Assembly (NCBI GenBank): GCA_029858305.1
Contig: JAOUFI010000014.1
Location: 1-40,958, forward strand
From: Candidatus Thorarchaeota archaeon
Lineage (GTDB): Archaea > Asgardarchaeota > Thorarchaeia > Thorarchaeales > Thorarchaeaceae
Reading direction: 5' to 3'
Length of the DNA stretch: 40,958 nucleotides
Below are positions 6,914 through 35,119 of this stretch, piece after piece. The translations under genes and the position numbers were made by a program. Each line of letters starts with the position of its first letter. Position 1 is the stretch's first letter. Under the pieces are notes generated by a model. That model ran no database searches. It saw only the letters and a program-made list of their open reading frames with translations, and was not told the origin of the DNA.

Positions 6914-8181
6914 CCCTCAGCGAATTCGAGGATATGATGGATAGTTGTGTTCGATGTTCAAAGTGTAAATTCATCCCACAACTTGTCATTCAGAGCAAAC
7001 GATTCTCGAGCGTTTGTCCTTCAGTCGATTTCTATAATTTTCATGCGTACTCTGGAGGGGGACGCATGATTATGGGAAATGCATACCAAAAGGGTCGCGT
7101 AGAATTCACACAAGAGATGCTAGATGTGCTTTATAGATGTACAAATTGTGGGGGCTGTGAGGTTTCATGCAAATGGGTCTACGACCTCGAACCTAATGAG
7201 GCAATTCATGCGCTCCGTGTTGCGGCTGTTGAAAATGGTGCAGGTCCTATGCCCAAGCACAGAAAGTACATTGAACTTGTTGAAAGAATGAAGAATCCGT
7301 ATGGCGAGAATCCTGCGCAACGAACCTCATGGTTGACTGATGATATTGAGATTGATGCATCTTCAGATACTCTCTATTTTGTTGGTTGCACTGCTGCTAG
7401 TAGACGAGAAGAGATAGCAATAGCTACGGCTAAAGTTCTGAATGCTGCGAAGGAAAAGTTTCGTATAATGGGTTCCGATGAACAATGTTGTGGCTCGCCT
7501 GTCTACAGAGTTGGAGATGAGAAACGTGCTATTCAGATCATGAAGGAAAATATTGCTAGCTTCGAGCAGGCTGGAATAAAGCGCATCATAACTAGCTGCT
7601 CAGGTTGTTATAACATGCTCAAAGTAGAGTATCCTCGATTTGTGGAACATGACATCGAAGTGGTTCATACTGCACAATTGATAGAATCCTTTCTCAAGGA
7701 AGGCAGACTCGAACTAGTAAAAGATGTACCATTGAAGGTAACATATCATGATCCATGTCATCTTGGAAGAATGGCTGAACCATATGAGAAGTGGGAAGGA
7801 GAAAAGATTGAGGTTCTCACTCTCGTGTATATCTATGATCCACCGAAACCTGAGCGTCGAGGCGCGAATGGCGTTTATGATGCTCCCAGAAATGTATTGA
7901 AACAAATTCCTGGTCTCGAGCTAGTGGAAATGGAGCGTATCCGAGAATACTCCTATTGTTGTGGAGCAGGCGGCGGGTGCAAATCTGCCTATCCGGATTT
8001 TGCTCTTACCACAGCAAATGAACGTTTAGAAGAAGCAGAAGCCACAGGAGCAAATACTCTCGTGTCAGCATGTCCCTTCTGTGGTACGAACTTTCTAGAT
8101 GGTATAGAAAACAGGAACTCATCTATGAAATACTATGACCTGATTCAGCTTGTACTACAAAGCATCGGAGGTGAAGAGTAG
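6910..8181 (+). CDS. Fe-S oxidoreductase with 4Fe-4S dicluster and two CCG domains (GlcF/HdrD-like)
   Basis: CVRCSKC, CTNCGGCEVSC, CCGSP, SCSGC, HDPCHLGR, CCGAGGG and ACPFC motifs. Confidence 0.9.
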   Translation: MTLSEFEDMMDSCVRCSKCKFIPQLVIQSKRFSSVCPSVDFYNFHAYSGGGRMIMGNAYQKGRVEFTQEMLDVLYRCTNCGGCEVSCKWVYDLEPNEAIHALRVAAVENGAGPMPKHRKYIELVERMKNPYGENPAQRTSWLTDDIEIDASSDTLYFVGCTAASRREEIAIATAKVLNAAKEKFRIMGSDEQCCGSPVYRVGDEKRAIQIMKENIASFEQAGIKRIITSCSGCYNMLKVEYPRFVEHDIEVVHTAQLIESFLKEGRLELVKDVPLKVTYHDPCHLGRMAEPYEKWEGEKIEVLTLVYIYDPPKPERRGANGVYDAPRNVLKQIPGLELVEMERIREYSYCCGAGGGCKSAYPDFALTTANERLEEAEATGANTLVSACPFCGTNFLDGIENRNSSMKYYDLIQLVLQSIGGEE

Positions 8182-9765
8182 ATGCTTGAGAAGAATGTCT
8201 ATGAGTCTTTCAAGAAAATCGTAGGTGATCAATTCATTTCACAAGATCCGGCAGTGATGGACACCTATGCTTTCCAGTGGTGTAATGAGATTGAGAGTGC
8301 ACAACGAGGAGAAGAGCCTCAGAGGTTCGGAGTTCGTCCTCTTGCTGTTCTTCTTCCTGCCTCGTTAGAGGAAGTCCAGGCCATCGTTAGGCTTTGTAAT
8401 GAACATGATGTCACATTCAAAGCTCACACAACAGGCATGGGTCCTTGGGCTGGTGTCAGTAATCTCCGATCTATCCAGATTGATCTTAGAAGGATGAATC
8501 GAATTCTTGAGATTGATGAGAAGAATATGTATGCAGTAATTGAACCATACGTCACGAATGCAGAACTCCAAAGTGAACTCTTCAGGTATGGACTCATGCA
8601 TCATGCACAGGGAGCAGGTCCTCAGACATCTCCGCTAGCTAGTCATACATCTTTTGTAGGACCTGGCTTTACTTCTCCATATACGGGCTTTAGCGGCAGG
8701 AACGTTCTTGGCGTTGAATGGGTTCTTCCCTCAGGTGACATCCTCCGACTTGGCTCCTATGATTATAATGGGAAATGGTTCTCGGGTGATGGTCCAGGCT
8801 TTAGTCTAAGGGGCATCATGAGAGGATGGCTTGGAGCCTATGGTGGTCTTGGCGTGTTCACAAAGGCTGCTATTCGACTCTTCTCTTGGCCAGCTCCGAA
8901 AGACTGGAAATGGAAGACTGGAGGTACAATTCCTAACTATGATTGGGAAGTTCCTCCATACTGGCAGCTATATGTTTTGAACTTTGAAGAATGGGAAGAG
9001 TACCAATCAGCAATGTATGAGTTGAATGATAGAGAGGTTTGTATGGTTGCCACAACATCTGCTCCTGAGGGTCTGGCAGCCTTGTTCACTAATACAAAGA
9101 CAGAGGCAATCGAGGCTATTTTTGCGGGTCTGCTTGCTAGGACAAGAAATTACATTGTCGTTCTAGTAGCAGCGCATACTAGGCGTGAATTCGAGTTTAG
9201 GGCAAAATTGGTGAAACTCATTCTGGAGAAATATGGCGGTAACGATCTCATTGAAGAAGGGGTGATAACTCCAAAACCAATGCATTATGGCGAAACCGTG
9301 CGCAACATGCTAGGTGCACATGCATTCCGCTTCTCCAATTGTTTCCAAAGCACTCACGGCGGAATGGATACTATTTCTATGGCAGTTAGACTTGCTCAAT
9401 TGAATCAGCCAGTGAAACAGAAGTATATCGAAAAAGGTGTAATTGGTGATGATAGAGGACTCGGTGTTTGGATAACGAGTTATGAATCCGGACACATGGC
9501 TCATATGGAGGTACCAACAGTCTACGATCCCACATCAGTGAAATCTTGCTTGGGCTATGCGGAATATCAAGATGAATGCAACAAAATGGACCTTGATCAA
9601 GCACTTGGCATGCCATTCTTCATAGTAGGTGATGAAGTTCACGAATTCTACGCAGAAAGAACTATGCATTATCCTGATTGGTTGAGAAAGATCAAAGCAT
9701 CTTTTGATCCAAAGGGTCTCTCTGATCCAAGTCACTATGTGAAAGGAGTGAAGAAAGATAAATGA
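8182..9765 (+). CDS. second FAD-binding oxidoreductase (GlcD/VAO-PCMH family)
   Basis: 'AVLLPASLEEVQAIVRLCN', 'IDLRRMNRILEID', 'GGLGVFTK' and 'KIKASFDP'. A GGAGGTG RBS lies upstream. Confidence 0.88.
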   Translation: MLEKNVYESFKKIVGDQFISQDPAVMDTYAFQWCNEIESAQRGEEPQRFGVRPLAVLLPASLEEVQAIVRLCNEHDVTFKAHTTGMGPWAGVSNLRSIQIDLRRMNRILEIDEKNMYAVIEPYVTNAELQSELFRYGLMHHAQGAGPQTSPLASHTSFVGPGFTSPYTGFSGRNVLGVEWVLPSGDILRLGSYDYNGKWFSGDGPGFSLRGIMRGWLGAYGGLGVFTKAAIRLFSWPAPKDWKWKTGGTIPNYDWEVPPYWQLYVLNFEEWEEYQSAMYELNDREVCMVATTSAPEGLAALFTNTKTEAIEAIFAGLLARTRNYIVVLVAAHTRREFEFRAKLVKLILEKYGGNDLIEEGVITPKPMHYGETVRNMLGAHAFRFSNCFQSTHGGMDTISMAVRLAQLNQPVKQKYIEKGVIGDDRGLGVWITSYESGHMAHMEVPTVYDPTSVKSCLGYAEYQDECNKMDLDQALGMPFFIVGDEVHEFYAERTMHYPDWLRKIKASFDPKGLSDPSHYVKGVKKDK

Positions 9766-10847
9766 AAGACAATATCAATCCAAACGTAAAAGAAGGGTGG
9801 ACGGGTCCTGGAAGAAGGGATGGGGTGATTCATCCTCTTAGACCTGAAGATGATGCGTTGCACATCGATGTAGGCAAGAAAAACCAATTCGAATGGTGGT
9901 ATTTCGATGCTCATCTCGATGGTGGCTACACTCTTGTTGCATTCTTCTACGCTGCAAATCCTAATCCCGGTTTGAACTCAGGCAAGACTGGCGTTGAGCT
10001 TGTTCTTCTACGTCCGGATGGTCGGAAGACACAGAGGTTCATCAAGTACAAAAAATCAGAATTCTCTGCATCACGTGAAAAAGCTGACGTGAAGATAGGC
10101 AAGAACTATCTCGAGGTTGATTACTCTCAAGGAGACCTTCCTATCTATCGAATTCATCTCGATGAGGAGGAACTTGCTTTTGATTTGACATACAAATCCC
10201 TAGTTGTTGGATGGAAACCTGGAACAGGCTTCTCACACTTTGCAGATCTTGGTTATTTCGCGTGGGTCGTTCCGTTTGCTAAAGCTGATGTGAGCGGTAT
10301 AGTTCGTGATGGCAATAAGACAATAAATGTCACGGGTGTTGGGTATCATGATCATAATTGGCTTAATTTCGCCTTCGCTACAATAATCGAGTACTGGATG
10401 TGGGGCAGGGTATACTCCGAGAATTTCACTCTCTCCTATGCATTCATACAGTGCAATCAGAAAGTTGACCGTCATGTAGTGAAGGTACTAATGCTAGCGA
10501 AAGGAAAAGATGTCATCCTGAGTTCTGGTGAGTTTGATTTCAGACAGGAGAATTTCGAATACAGCAAGGCGGCTGGTCATAGTTTTCCAAGAACAATTAT
10601 CATTACCAATCCAGAAAAAGGTGAAATCAAACTAGATGTTGCTAGAATCCTTGAGGCTGAGAGCATGCTTGCCAACTTCAATATAGCATTAAGATTCATA
10701 GCTAAAAACATACTTAGGATGAAACCCGGTTACTTTAGACTGAATTCAGATTTTGCACTAAGGATAACACATGATGGAAACACCTACACGGAGGTTGGTA
10801 ACACACTTCACGAGATTGTGACATTCAAGCAGTTAGGTCCAAGTTAG
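9762..10847 (+). CDS. CrtC/AttH (hydroxyneurosporene synthase / lipocalin-like double barrel) family protein
   Basis: Family motifs 'EWWYFDAHLD' and 'GVGYHDHNW...W.WGR'. ATGA overlap with the upstream gene. Confidence 0.75.
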   Translation: MKDNINPNVKEGWTGPGRRDGVIHPLRPEDDALHIDVGKKNQFEWWYFDAHLDGGYTLVAFFYAANPNPGLNSGKTGVELVLLRPDGRKTQRFIKYKKSEFSASREKADVKIGKNYLEVDYSQGDLPIYRIHLDEEELAFDLTYKSLVVGWKPGTGFSHFADLGYFAWVVPFAKADVSGIVRDGNKTINVTGVGYHDHNWLNFAFATIIEYWMWGRVYSENFTLSYAFIQCNQKVDRHVVKVLMLAKGKDVILSSGEFDFRQENFEYSKAAGHSFPRTIIITNPEKGEIKLDVARILEAESMLANFNIALRFIAKNILRMKPGYFRLNSDFALRITHDGNTYTEVGNTLHEIVTFKQLGPS

Positions 10848-31219: not shown

Positions 31220-32536
31220 TTAAATAAAACCTAGCATAAACAATACCAGGTACATTAGTATGAATGATGCGATGATTATCGAGTCTCTGGCGACGATTCT
31301 CACAAGTCTTGTTTGTCTATCTCCTAGATAGACATAGATCATTTTGTTGAGAACAGAGATGATAGTTGCAATGATTATCGCCATGGCTGCTTCAGGATAG
31401 AGAGCAGGATTAAGCATGAATACAGTAGCAGAGCTGGCTACGACTGCACCTGCTGACACAAGTCCTCCAATAATTGCAGCAACAATGAGACCAGTCCCAC
31501 TGTAGGTCTGAGTGAAGAGCAGTTGAATTAAGTATACACCTGAGAAGATTGCTCCAAATCGTAGGGCAGGTCCGAGCTCAAATGGTGATACAAGTTTGAG
31601 GTCATACAGAGCCTTACTAGGCTGTTCATGGTCTCTATTTTCTTGGAACATGCGGATCATGCTCATGATAATTAGAATGGCCATAACTCCAATGTACAAC
31701 CTAAAGAGCCAGAAGGTTCTATCAATAATCAGTAGCAGGAATCCGTTCCTCAGAGACATGGCTATATTTGCTAGATTGACCGATACTGCGATTTTTCCAG
31801 CTCCACGTCTCTCTTCCCTGACATAGAAATCAGTTAGGCTTGATACAGCCGCCTCGCTACTTGCTAGTCCACCAAAGATACCAAAGAAGTAAATCCCTCT
31901 GTCTCTGTACTTCTTTACTAGCAAATAGTTTGCGAATTTGATTGTCAGGAGAATCACAATCAGAACATAGATTTGAAATGCGGGAAACTCGATGATTCCA
32001 ATTTGAATTATCTGTGGGACTAGTGGCCATGCAAAGAGGATTACTACACCAAGTTCGACTGCACTGATCATCTCATCACGCGTGATAACCTCAACTGCGT
32101 GAGCAAGCTCTTCTTTGAAGCCCAGAATTAGAAACACCAAGAACGAAACAGCCATTGCAAATACCGAAAGCATACCAAAGAGTTGACCTGGACTCGGCGT
32201 ATCGAATCCGACAAGCACTCCCAAGACGAATGAAATGGAAAATACAAGTGGTGTTGTCAGACCTTTTCCCATGGTTCTGAAAAGTTTGTAATAGACTTGA
32301 GTCGCAACAAGGATGGTCGATATGACGATTCCATAGACAAGAATCACGGGATTGGATATGAGCTCTGACATGTAGGCGGTCATAGTTCCCAGTAGACTAT
32401 GTAGACCAAATGAGCGTACACCAGCAGTTCTACTTGCCTCTAATTTCTTTTGGCGTTCGAGACCTATTAGAGCTCCAACTACAAAACCTATGAGTGCTTT
32501 CACAATTAAATCCGCACTTGCTAGTAGCTCTTGCAA
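31220..32536 (-). CDS. MgtC/SapB N-terminal + DUF4010 membrane protein
   Basis: 'GALIGLER', 'AGVRSF', 'GLTT', 'GGLASSEA' and 'SPFELGPALRFG'. Confidence 0.88.
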   Translation of the reverse strand: MQELLASADLIVKALIGFVVGALIGLERQKKLEASRTAGVRSFGLHSLLGTMTAYMSELISNPVILVYGIVISTILVATQVYYKLFRTMGKGLTTPLVFSISFVLGVLVGFDTPSPGQLFGMLSVFAMAVSFLVFLILGFKEELAHAVEVITRDEMISAVELGVVILFAWPLVPQIIQIGIIEFPAFQIYVLIVILLTIKFANYLLVKKYRDRGIYFFGIFGGLASSEAAVSSLTDFYVREERRGAGKIAVSVNLANIAMSLRNGFLLLIIDRTFWLFRLYIGVMAILIIMSMIRMFQENRDHEQPSKALYDLKLVSPFELGPALRFGAIFSGVYLIQLLFTQTYSGTGLIVAAIIGGLVSAGAVVASSATVFMLNPALYPEAAMAIIIATIISVLNKMIYVYLGDRQTRLVRIVARDSIIIASFILMYLVLFMLGFI

Positions 32537-32638
32537 ACTCGTTCACCACTGAGACATAAACATCAGGTGTTTTCAACTTTTAAGGCAATGTATGATGAGA
32601 TTCATTTGAACGCAAAGAAAAACAGGAAGAGGCTGGAA

Positions 32639-33304
32639 TCAATCCAACCTCGTATTCTTTAGCAGCACAGAGAGAGGTACGTCATTATACTCTCCAGTGG
32701 GAAGTGATCTTCGGACAGTCATAGGTAATACTCCTGCACGAAGTTCTTCTTCAGCAAATCCAAATCTTCCCATTGGCGTATTACCCACTTCGATCATTAC
32801 CGGTGCTCCCATAGATATCTGAAGTGCACGAGCTCCGATGATTCGAGCCTTCTCGTACTTTGTTAGCCACTTGGGACCAATAGTCACTCCCAAAGCGGCC
32901 TTATCTTCATCATATCCAGTTACTAAGTTCTTTCTCTCTTTTGCGCGGGCTATCTCCTCAATTGGCTCAAGTTCATGTCTATCCGGTTCAGGCTCTGGAG
33001 CCTTCTTCCGTTTTGACTTTGACTTGCCGCTCAGATCAACGACTCCCGTCTCTATCTTTTCTAGAAGAGCAAGGGCTTCGACAATCACACCTTCAGCCTT
33101 TGATTCGCTGAGACCTGCTACTGCTTCTGCAAGCTTTTCTTTCTCAGCGTGAGCCACTTTCTCAATGGAATCATAACCGGCTTGTGCTAGCTTTTCAGCT
33201 GTTTTCGGTCCAACGCCACCGATATTACTAAGGAGAGAGGCTATCTCTTCCATAGTAAGTGACTCTTCAGTCTCACTTTCCTTGTTTTCGGGGTCATCTG
33301 ACAT
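32639..33304 (-). CDS. rpo6: RNA polymerase subunit Rpo6 (K/omega) fused to an N-terminal helix-hairpin-helix domain
   Basis: C-terminal 'LTKYEKARIIGARALQISMGAP...AEEELRAGVLPMTVRR' is Rpo6. N-terminal 'NIGGVGPKTAEKLAQAGYDSIEKVA...VAGLSESKA' is a double HhH. Confidence 0.92.
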   Translation of the reverse strand: MSDDPENKESETEESLTMEEIASLLSNIGGVGPKTAEKLAQAGYDSIEKVAHAEKEKLAEAVAGLSESKAEGVIVEALALLEKIETGVVDLSGKSKSKRKKAPEPEPDRHELEPIEEIARAKERKNLVTGYDEDKAALGVTIGPKWLTKYEKARIIGARALQISMGAPVMIEVGNTPMGRFGFAEEELRAGVLPMTVRRSLPTGEYNDVPLSVLLKNTRLD

Positions 33305-33340
33305 GAGCTACACCTGATTTTGTTTTACGTTTGACTCTTT

Positions 33341-34978
33341 CTATTCGTCGTCGCCGCCTTCATAATCGCCGCCGGGACCGCCACCCGCGCTGGGTGCGCC
33401 TTTTGAGCTGATTACGTCATCGATTTTTAGAATCATTTGAGCTGCTTCTGCTGCTGACATAACAATTTGCTTGTTAACTATTGCTGCTTCTACAACTCTG
33501 GCTTTCTTCATGTCATCGACTTTTCCTGAAATGAGGTTAATTCCATGGAAAGTATGGCCGTCTGTGTGGCTCTTCCTTAGATTAACTATCACATCGATTG
33601 GATCCAATCCTGCGTTTTCAGCGAGAGTGGTTGGTAGTGATTCGACTGCATCTGCAAATGCATTGACTGCATATTGCTCGCGACCCTCTAGGGTTGATGC
33701 ATAGTCTCTGAGTTGTTTGGAAATCTCTGAAGCCAATGCGCCACCACCATAGGTGACTTGTGGATGCATGACCACATCACGTACGACGTACAAAGCATCG
33801 TTGAGTGCACGATCAACCTCATCAACAATATGATCAGTTCCACCGCGAACAAGAAGGGTCACAACGCTTGACTTAGGAGTACCTTCGATGAAGAGCATCT
33901 TGTCATCGCCAACAGTTCTTTGTTCAACGAGCTTGGCTTTGCCTAGGTCTGCTGCAGTTACGTTCTGGATCTTTGATACAATCGCGGCACCAGTGGTCTC
34001 GTGGACTCTCTCGACATCAGATTTCTTAATTCGTCGCACAGCCATGATTCCCTTCTTTGCTAGAAAATGCTGAACAACGTCGTCTATTCCCTTCTGAGCG
34101 ATAACAACATTTGCGCCTGATTCAACAATCTTGTCGACCATATTCTTCAGCATGCGCTCTTCTTCTTGAAGGAAACTCTGCATGCCTGTTGGATCTGTGA
34201 TTGATATCTTTGCATCGAACTCAGTCTTGGTGATCTCAAGAGCTGCCTCTAGAAGGAGTATCTTTGCACTCTCTACCCTCTTTGGCATCCCTGCGTGAAC
34301 GACTTCTTTATCGAGAACGAGTCCCTTCACAAGTTCAGTCTTGTCAATTGACATTCCAACCTGCTTCTGTCGTGGAATGTTCTCAATATCAAGCTCCTCA
34401 TCTTTAGGAAGATCTTTTGCAATAGCAAGTACTGCGTCAACGACGATTTTAGCAAGTGAATCTCGTGAACTTGCAACAAACTTGCTTGACATAGCCGTCT
34501 TTGCTACATCATTAAGGATCTTTTTGTAATCGGATGCAGAAGGATCAACCTGTTCTGCAACAGAGTCAATGACCTCAAGCGCTTTGGTAGCTGCCTTTCT
34601 ATAACCACTTATGATGGTGGTAGGATGTATCTTCTGATCTAGCAGAGTCTCAGCCTGCTTCAGAAGGTCGCCTGTGAGCACAGCAGCTGTGGTTGTGCCA
34701 TCGCCAACCTCCGCATCTACAGTCTTTGCAACCTCAATAACCATCTTTGCAGCGGGATGAGCAACATCCATTTCCTTCAGAATAGTTGCACCATCATTGG
34801 TGACAGTCACATCACCGAAGCTATCGACCAGCATTTTGTCCATGCCTTTTGGTCCAAGAGCGCTCTTGACAGCCTCAGCAATGACAATCGCTGCCATGAT
34901 ATTGTTTCTCTGAGCATCACGACCGCGTGTTCTCTCGGTGTCTTCTCTTAATACAATCACCGGTACTTGTTGACTCAT
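33341..34978 (-). CDS. ths: thermosome (group II chaperonin) subunit
   Basis: '[10 protein letters not shown]', 'TNDGATIL', 'GDGTTT' and 'ILKIDD'. GGAGG RBS before the ATG at 34978. Confidence 0.97.
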
Positions 34979-35119
34979 ATTATTTCCTCCATTGACTGGG
35001 AAAGTAGCACTACGATTTCGCACTACTTTTACCAGTTCAAATAAAAGTGTACAAGCGCTTCGCGTTTTTTTTCTTTTTAAACGTTACTTTCAAGCAGTGT
35101 TTTGCCATCCTGTAAATCA

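Follow-up and report, generated by a model that had tools for sequence, protein, structure and literature searches.

An (HhH)2 domain of RadA/Rad51 type on the RNA polymerase subunit Rpo6 of a Thorarchaeota-labelled archaeal family, and its possible contact with DNA

The stretch of DNA analysed here (‘the window’) comprises 40,958 nucleotides (nt), positions 1 to 40,958 of contig JAOUFI010000014.1 in GenBank assembly GCA_029858305.1 of Candidatus Thorarchaeota archaeon. Its gene for the RNA polymerase subunit Rpo6 (RpoK) encodes a protein of 221 amino acids (aa), in which an acidic tail, a folded double helix-hairpin-helix ((HhH)2) domain and a basic and proline/acidic stretch precede the Rpo6 core. 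This is the sole Rpo6 subunit of RNA polymerase in one Thorarchaeota-labelled family of the Genome Taxonomy Database (GTDB family f1); purifying selection acts on the extension as strongly as on the core, and the most likely role of the extension, here proposed tentatively, is that of a tethered module contacting DNA. A first-pass annotation, made from the letters and open reading frames (ORFs) of the window, had described a single 221-aa ORF with an acidic start, an (HhH)2 domain, a KSKSKRKK/PEPEP linker and an Rpo6 core, and this architecture is confirmed: Pfam, NCBIfam, the sequence and structure models agree on it. ‘Thorarchaeota’ and ‘Heimdallarchaeota’ are used below as the source labels of the homologues. 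The gene and the parts of its product are as follows.

32639..33304, minus strand: complete rpoK/rpo6 gene of 221 codons, with an ATG start and its stop codon at 32639-32641
33254..33304, minus strand: acidic disordered N-terminal tail, aa 1-17, net charge -6, predicted local distance difference test (pLDDT) below 50
33050..33253, minus strand: (HhH)2 domain, aa 18-85, five helices, two hairpins, net charge -6
33002..33049, minus strand: basic stretch, aa 86-101, net charge +5, ending in KSKSKRKK (aa 94-101), predicted unstructured, nearly invariant
32954..33001, minus strand: proline/acidic stretch APEPEPDRHELEPIEE, aa 102-117, net charge -6, with PEPEP at aa 103-107, predicted unstructured, conserved
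32888..32953, minus strand: two pre-core helices, aa 118-139, aligning with the N-terminal part of crenarchaeal RpoK
32642..32887, minus strand: Rpo6/Rpb6 core, aa 140-221, including a eukaryote-like C-terminal beta-finger

Three profiles delimit the two folded parts: HHH_5 (PF14520) at aa 24-77 (E-value (E) 8.2e-12, 45.9 bits, cut-off 27), RNA_pol_Rpb6 (PF01192) at aa 144-194 (E 2.5e-7, 31 bits, cut-off 26) and the NCBIfam RpoK equivalog NF002207 at aa 138-220 (E 4.3e-26, 91 bits, cut-off 71). AlphaFold2 models of the whole protein (28-row alignment, pLDDT 71.9) and of aa 1-117 (33 rows, pLDDT 72.3) agree with each other. In them aa 1-15 and about 87-115 are without structure, helices at 18-25, 33-42, 47-51, 55-61 and 67-86 make up the (HhH)2 fold, two further helices lie at about 116-138, and the core reaches a pLDDT of 85-90. 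Together with the preceding helices, the complete Rpo6/RpoK core spans aa ~118-221. Searched with Foldseek, the core matches 7oq4_K (E 2.2e-4), 4ayb_K (50% identity) and chain F of Pol II (root-mean-square deviation (rmsd) 3.8-4.2 Å), and 7oq4_K/7ok0_K align to the core region over 103 columns; the matches include no polymerase structure from an Asgard archaeon.

An alignment of 28 sequences adds detail to the extension. Invariant are both hairpins (G30-V31-G32 and G64-L65-S66), K38 and K69 in the HhH domain, and K98, R99, K100, A102, P107 and L112 in the linker, the consensus of which is KSKSKRKKAPEPEPDRHEL. Mean net charge is -5.9 for the N-terminal tail (range -32 to +6), -5.6 for the HhH domain (range -7 to -3), +4.8 for aa 86-101, -4.5 for aa 102-117 and +4.8 for the core; the tail is also the part that varies in length, from 16 to 69 aa in relatives. 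Between the HhH domain and the first core-associated helix, about 30 residues are predicted to be unstructured. This stretch, the (HhH)2 fold, purifying selection and retention throughout the clade bear out the earlier description of a domain flexibly tethered to a polymerase subunit.

A PF01192 profile search of the window's own genome (3.04 Mb in 205 contigs, 88.9% complete) has a single match, the gene at 32639..33304, which is therefore the organism's own Rpo6 and not an extra paralogue. Nor is the gene a singleton: a word-indexed search of 5.8 billion proteins has 285 homologues with E<=1e-3, and the 120 of these that were listed range in length from 197 to 325 aa, align over 89-100% of the query and contain Pfam families of HhH type. 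Those of the 120 that are named are called ‘DNA-directed RNA polymerase subunit K’ and labelled Thorarchaeota, with one label Promethearchaeota. Full-length matches (~residues 1-221) occur in 79 of the 85 other genomes of the family, representing 15 of its 16 genera. In the Asgard-wide survey that the first-pass annotation had called for, among the matches listed from 400 genomes of the phylum, the full-length form is restricted to this family, and in the other 314 Asgard genomes the listed matches start at a query residue of at least 87, in open frames of 95-171 aa. Five of the six exceptions within the family were searched with PF01192 (the sixth, G380, is 62% complete and was left out) and have no Rpo6 above the cut-off; the gene is therefore missing from these assemblies rather than unfused.

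An unfused Rpo6 in the family was considered and rejected. Of seven short entries (82-110 aa, sharing 68-83% identity with the core), six are read as fragments or alternative gene calls: one is a different call of a full-length gene, four come from contigs of 551-929 bp and one from a 1878-bp contig. The seventh, P0344 (82 aa), comes from an 11.6-kb contig labelled TA06 bacterium. A second short Rpo6 copy in genome G327 ends at a contig end and is hence uninformative. The homologue set also holds some unusual forms. P0011 (325 aa) and P0013 (320 aa) are Thor-type Rpo6 proteins with the whole HhH2-plus-linker module tandemly duplicated. P0129, P0131 and P0134 are HhH-only metagenomic fragments of 122-158 aa, probably the result of sequencing errors; the first two look frameshifted inside the KSKRKK-encoding stretch, and P0134 departs after an intact KKSKRKK and may come from a chimeric contig. 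In P0269 (553 aa, metagenomic), a LarA-like lactate racemase (Lar_N + LarA_C) is followed by a C-terminal Rpo6 core, which reflects either an unusual fusion or a gene call joined in error.

It is the full-length protein of 221 aa that is conserved and selected as the product of the gene. In 28 of 29 loci the protein starts from an ATG as ‘MS[DE]G...’, usually one codon past an in-frame stop, and the 15 nt that precede this first ATG (AATCAGGTGTAGCTC) are conserved. Counting the window, 29 of 30 loci have a Shine-Dalgarno (SD)-like GGTG or GAGG within -16..-3, and the 30th is cut by a contig end. Selection was gauged by the Nei-Gojobori pN/pS (nonsynonymous over synonymous differences per site) of the window's gene against its three closest relatives, which gives 0.03, 0.12 and 0.13 for the HhH domain, 0.15, 0.21 and 0.08 for aa 86-113, and 0.06, 0.11 and 0.14 for the core. 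The acidic tail, at 0.36-0.55, is under the weakest constraint in the protein; for the N-terminal 139 codons together the values are 0.06-0.16. Two metatranscriptome libraries contributed contigs that match aa 12-114 and aa 86-174 as well as the 3' end, and one contig bridges the junction of linker and core; such contigs neither prove transcription, show transcript ends or strand, nor exclude carry-over of DNA, and stretches they leave uncovered mean nothing.

Two other explanations of the long ORF can be set against these data. It could be that the functional Rpo6 is short, starting near codon 138-140, the HhH part being made separately or as a minor product, or carried along neutrally. In the window, codon 138 (32891-32893) reads TTG and codon 140 (32885-32887) GTG; of the 27 loci counted (L018-L020, with Ile at position 138, were left out of the 30), 18 have ATG at codon 138; and databases hold the few gene calls of 82-110 aa mentioned above. 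Neither codon is conserved as a start, however: codon 138 is CTG, CTT or CTC in five of the 27 loci, the two closest relatives among them, codon 140 is GTG in two and ATT, ATC or ATA in 25, and synonymous sites upstream of codon 138 vary among loci. The low pN/pS of the N-terminal 139 codons, the conserved SD at the first ATG and the RNA-library contig spanning aa 86-174 likewise speak for the long product. One of the short gene calls, P0338 (82 aa), coincides, except that an Ile is read as Met, with the final 82 residues of P0030 (224 aa), which has the same organism label, and is therefore an alternative gene call. An internal start as the source of the main product was accordingly rejected and we consider it very improbable; species with ATG at codon 138 could still make a short extra isoform. 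The other explanation, an assembly or binning artefact or a frameshift-joined gene pair, draws on the fragmented state of the 205-contig assembly and on database fragments such as P0129 that are frameshifted in the A-rich linker. It was rejected too, and is so improbable as to be negligible, because the same uninterrupted ORF and gene order recur in 29 other, independently assembled genomes, a 1283-nt DNA contig of a different study covers the whole gene with 13 differences, and the window's own linker is without a long homopolymer. The fusion has thus outlasted the three doubts raised with its first description, that it was a singleton, an artefact or the product of an internal start.

The HhH domain is closest to the N-terminal domain (NTD) of RadA/Rad51 and to modules in eL32, topoisomerase VI subunit A (Top6A) and RadA of the same genome. 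In sequence, the best matches to solved structures are the Rad51/RadA NTD of P. furiosus (1pzn, 5e-8) and a repeat of topoisomerase V (3e-7), followed by the human RAD51 NTD (1e-5) and L32e of H. marismortui (2e-5), NusA reaching only about 0.1. The 68-aa domain alone matches, among sequences of the Protein Data Bank (PDB), the topoisomerase V HhH repeat (2.6e-9), the P. furiosus Rad51 NTD (1.5e-7) and the human RAD51 NTD (3.9e-5). In fold, Foldseek superposes it on the RadA NTD at an rmsd of 1.1-1.2 Å over 57-58 columns with 40-41% identity (3ntu: 1.1 Å, 58, 41%), and it also matches topoisomerase V solved in complex with DNA (8df9) and the RAD51 NTD bound to the H4 tail (8xbw; rmsd 1.8 Å, 36% identity). 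A VIA fold comparison gives a tie of the RadA NTD, NusA AR1/AR2 and domain 5 of Hel308/PolQ. In the residue alignment, the invariant K69 corresponds to RAD51 Lys70.

The extension of Rpo6 is one instance of an HhH2-plus-charged-linker cassette that is attached to several nucleic-acid machines. In this genome, paralogues of the module occupy the N-termini of eL32, Top6A and RadA, with one, two and one HHH_5 matches, respectively. eL32 (L033:1483-2379 (+) = G000:C44) is 298 aa long and consists of HHH_5 at aa 6-61, a ~110-aa Lys/Ala/Pro-rich linker and L32e, its HhH being 37% identical to that of Rpo6 (E 9e-10). Top6A (L125:754-2889 (-) = G000:C74, about 7753-9888; 711 aa) has TP6A_N and Toprim on its C-terminal side; its N-terminal part is Lys-rich and holds two HHH_5 (E 3e-18) with an acidic stretch between them and a second Lys-rich linker. 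RadA (366 aa) begins with an acidic tail and continues with HHH_5. Loki-labelled eL32 proteins bear 2-4 such HhH modules each, and a literature search on L32e with helix-hairpin-helix found no paper.

Other features at the locus are listed here, before the origin of the fusion is discussed.

33311..33314, minus strand: GGTG SD-like motif, 7 nt 5' of the rpoK ATG, inside the conserved AATCAGGTGTAGCTC-ATG
33341..35023, minus strand: thermosome subunit, the upstream neighbour, 36 nt from the rpoK ATG (Pfam Cpn60_TCP1, E 7.6e-178)
31220..32536, minus strand: MgtC/DUF4010 membrane protein, the downstream neighbour (by Pfam)
32619..32651, minus strand: terminator-like hairpin of 9 pairs, then TTCCTGTTTT (a T-run), overlapping the end and stop codon of the rpoK ORF

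The hairpin comes from a consensus scan alone, which found 4 such elements where 2.3 were expected; an RNA-library contig continues beyond it, as far as 32577. Within the family (29 loci) the thermosome gene is upstream in 27, the remaining two being cut by a contig end, and the MgtC/DUF4010 gene is downstream in all 29. The order thermosome, rpoK, MgtC/DUF4010 (31220-35023) is kept in the family and in its sister family, and the pairing of thermosome and rpoK also in one further Asgard family (loci L039 and L042).

This shared order bears on how the fusion arose. In the sister family (G311), thermosome, rpoK and MgtC/DUF4010 have the identical arrangement, and Rpo6 is 151-153 aa long; its tail of 78 aa is acidic-basic-acidic and lacks an HhH. 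It follows that the cassette entered a charged tail that was already there, while the gene kept its place. By this comparison, the ancestral Rpo6 would already have had a charged N-terminal tail, and in GTDB family f1 an (HhH)2 cassette of RadA/Rad51-NTD type would have been inserted into it. The suggestion of the first-pass annotation that the HhH domain might be relevant to the origin of the eukaryotic RPB6 extension is not supported: the HhH is confined to one archaeal family, and both the sister family and the Heimdall-labelled genomes inspected are without it, so it is not a precursor of the eukaryotic Rpb6 tail. As a late, lineage-specific insertion, it has no direct bearing on the origin of that tail.

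A fusion of opposite polarity exists, independently gained in a Heimdall-like lineage. Six metagenomic clusters (P0138, P0277, P0278, P0279, P0280 and P0150; 183-249 aa, 50-89% identical to P0138) from short metagenomic contigs of 1.2-9 kb begin with the Rpo6 core and continue with one or two HHH_5; in P0138, HHH_5 matches at E 3.6e-28 and Rpb6 at aa 13-66. Their closest kin, P0281 and P0282, have a PAKKAAKK-type Lys-rich tail in place of the HhH, and the nearest species genomes are Heimdallarchaeota-labelled, with a core 58-70% identical and a short Rpo6 without HhH. Scanning genome contigs with P0277 gave no relative, and a scan with alignment A2 gave core matches alone; the C-terminal-HhH form is therefore absent from the species-representative genomes listed.

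Charged tails on Rpo6 are more widespread. Among 21 other Asgard Rpo6 loci surveyed, 20 gave rows (L141 had no core-motif match), and tail lengths are rough since first-ATG starts were taken. Two other Asgard families have Lys-rich N-tails of about 70-80 aa with net charges of +15 and +17, and in a third family the basic tail is shorter, at net +6, again with rough starts (L040, L041, L042 and L127 were examined). The statement of the first-pass annotation that an archaeal Rpo6 normally has fewer than about 100 aa is thus only roughly right, as several Asgard families depart from it by charged N-terminal tails. In a set of unspecified taxonomy, the acidic N-tail is the commonest type among Rpo6/Rpb6 extensions of at least 50 aa (39 of 68).

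We regard a tethered DNA-contact module as the most likely role of the extension, albeit tentatively. The core would hold the subunit next to Rpo5, at the clamp base, and the (HhH)2 domain with the invariant KSKSKRKK patch would swing on the tether and touch, independently of sequence, the backbone phosphates of double-stranded DNA close to the polymerase. The most plausible target would be downstream DNA by the jaw of Rpo5. Contacts of this kind would raise the affinity for DNA during promoter loading or elongation, and the acidic tail may modulate them. We favour this reading because the nearest relatives of the domain bind DNA, K69 corresponds to RAD51 Lys70 and topoisomerase V has been solved on DNA; because the other hosts of the cassette act on nucleic acids; and because Lys-rich tails replace or parallel the HhH on Rpo6 in other lineages. 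According to the available parts of the respective papers, relatives of RadA/Rad51 type contact DNA via hairpins (PMC3950489), the RAD51 substitution K70A weakens binding of nucleosomal DNA (PMC10990931), and the N-terminal tail of yeast Rpb6 has been observed inside the active-centre cleft (PMC9935396), so that an N-terminal appendage of this subunit can get to the path of the DNA.

Several observations weigh the other way, and some of them favour a possible, if doubtful, alternative, namely that the (HhH)2 domain, the linker motif or both bind protein and not DNA, with Rpo5 or Rpo1, a transcription factor or the basic tail of a chromatin protein as candidate partners. The HhH domain is net acidic in all 28 aligned sequences, like NusA AR1/AR2, which are among its top fold matches, and Ala63 stands where RAD51 has Lys64. 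NusA AR2 binds the C-terminal domain (CTD) of the bacterial alpha subunit, a precedent for an HhH domain that binds protein. A passive tether does not explain the strong conservation of the ‘linker’: the near-invariant KSKSKRKKAPEPEPDRHEL stretch looks like a binding motif of the short-linear-motif kind. Where the N-terminus of Rpo6 lies with respect to DNA is judged from structures of eukaryotes, as far as the available parts of the sources go. The RAD51 NTD binds a basic histone tail, that of H4, as well as DNA, according to the available part of PMC10990931, which is a second precedent and means that the same fold can bind peptide; the 8xbw match is to this complex.

A complex prediction for Rpo6 aa 1-117 with the organism's own Rpo5 scored 0.47 against 0.22 for the best control, with at least 76% of contacts shared between runs and a partner pLDDT of at least 66. 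The mark applied is reached by 116 of 157 solved complexes and by 2 of 215 mismatches, and the scores up to 0.60 that reach it belong to 18 of the 157 solved complexes and to both passing mismatches. The pass is thus a weak one, and a pass of this kind is more often wrong than right unless the pair was likely beforehand, which counts against leaning on it for either function; as weak support, the predicted pairing would fit both a position at the downstream-DNA jaw and a purely protein-binding role. It agrees with AlphaFold3 contacts of Thorarchaeota Rpo6 with Rpo5 given in the available part of PMC13257274, where contacts with RID are also modelled. Speaking for DNA over protein as the target, the sequence of the domain is nearer to the RadA NTD and topoisomerase V than to NusA, and the Lys-rich tails at the equivalent place in other lineages point to nucleic acid. 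As a side observation, this Rpo5 (RpoH; L126:1177-1734 (+) = G000:C19) is 185 aa long, with Rpb5_C at aa 109-181 preceded by a ~105-aa N-terminal domain that has a weak restriction-endonuclease match (Mrr_cat, E 8.4e-5) and recalls the two-domain eukaryotic Rpb5.

It is unlikely that the extension is autoinhibitory, its acidic tail and acidic HhH filling the cleft of the free polymerase as a DNA mimic, or masking the basic patch, until displaced on DNA loading. The idea is modelled on the description of the yeast Rpb6 N-terminal tail in the available part of PMC9935396, and it would suit both the alternating charge blocks of the extension (-6 / -6 / +5 / -6) and the prevalence of acidic N-tails among long Rpo6/Rpb6 extensions. 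A charge mimic, however, needs no folded 68-aa domain with invariant HhH hairpins, and the acidic tail is the least constrained part of the protein, with a net charge of up to +6 among the 28 sequences.

Of 40 genomes sampled from the family, 35 have histone PF00808, mostly in one copy and in frames of 79-128 aa, which would supply a chromatin partner for a protein-binding module; it was not found in the window's own 88.9%-complete assembly. More broadly, and as a possibility of which we are not confident, Rpo6 may be a recurrent Asgard attachment point for appendages that contact DNA or chromatin, the N-terminal HhH keeping the polymerase on double-stranded DNA, perhaps bound by histones, at the jaw of Rpo5. 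It is rare for the core subunits of cellular RNA polymerases to acquire folded domains, and an (HhH)2 domain selected on Rpo6 throughout a clade means a built-in extra contact that is missing from model polymerases; the opposite-polarity fusion and the Lys-rich tails on the same subunit point the same way. Should the contact be with DNA, it would be a simple example of a polymerase tuning its DNA affinity, or coping with chromatin, without extra factors, and Asgard Rpo6 tails would be functional and not filler.

The fusion as such is already known, as it has been mentioned briefly in print for Thorarchaeota (Shematorova & Shpakovski 2026, PMC13257274). In its available part, that paper models contacts of Thorarchaeota Rpo6 with Rpo5, RID and Rpo1 (by AlphaFold3 for Rpo5 and RID), and this part contains neither the distribution within Thorarchaeota, the RadA/Rad51-NTD assignment, an analysis of the linker or an experiment, nor the C-terminal fusion, the tandem duplication or the eL32 and Top6A cassettes. 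A full-text literature search found no other paper on an Rpo6-HhH fusion. The source databases already name the homologues RpoK and carry their Pfam matches.

Among known systems, the C-terminal 84-100 residues are a full member of archaeal Rpo6/RpoK (Rpb6, bacterial omega), 36-50% identical to solved chains. The difference from other archaeal Rpo6 lies in ~117 extra N-terminal residues with a folded (HhH)2 domain, the tails of the other Asgard families inspected being short or no more than charged; most archaeal RpoK are said to be without an N-terminal tail in the available part of PMC8754651. The RadA/Rad51 NTD is nearest by both sequence identity and fold, but here it sits on a polymerase subunit instead of a recombinase ATPase, and the GFxxAxE polymerisation motif of the RadA/Rad51 linker (PMC3950489, from its available part) is absent from the Rpo6 linker. 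eL32 of haloarchaea, Lokiarchaeota and this genome likewise has HhH2 and a Lys-rich stretch at the N-terminus of a core information-processing protein, with an HhH about neutral in charge where that of Rpo6 is acidic. NusA AR1/AR2, which have a marginal sequence match, belong to a dissociable factor and not to a core subunit. The eukaryotic Rpb6 tail is also N-terminal and starts acidic and disordered, a compositional likeness alone; it is without HhH, and it binds the PH domain of TFIIH p62 (PMC8754651, from its available part).

With the bacterial alpha-CTD, which the first-pass annotation had proposed as an analogue, the likeness stands as one of architecture and not of membership. RNA_pol_A_CTD (PF03118) is not among the 13 Pfam families with E<=1 for this Rpo6; the C-terminal-fusion protein P0138 reaches 32.4 bits against PF03118 as a whole protein, no single stretch passing; and alpha-CTD chains are not among the 50 fold matches listed by Foldseek or VIA, an absence that carries no weight. 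The alpha-CTD binds DNA and activators. Both systems join a small HhH-type domain by a flexible linker to a subunit of polymerase assembly, a different one in each case, and if Rpo6 is indeed a recurrent attachment point, its HhH extension would correspond in function to the alpha-CTD, with a domain of recombinase type put to this use in archaea.

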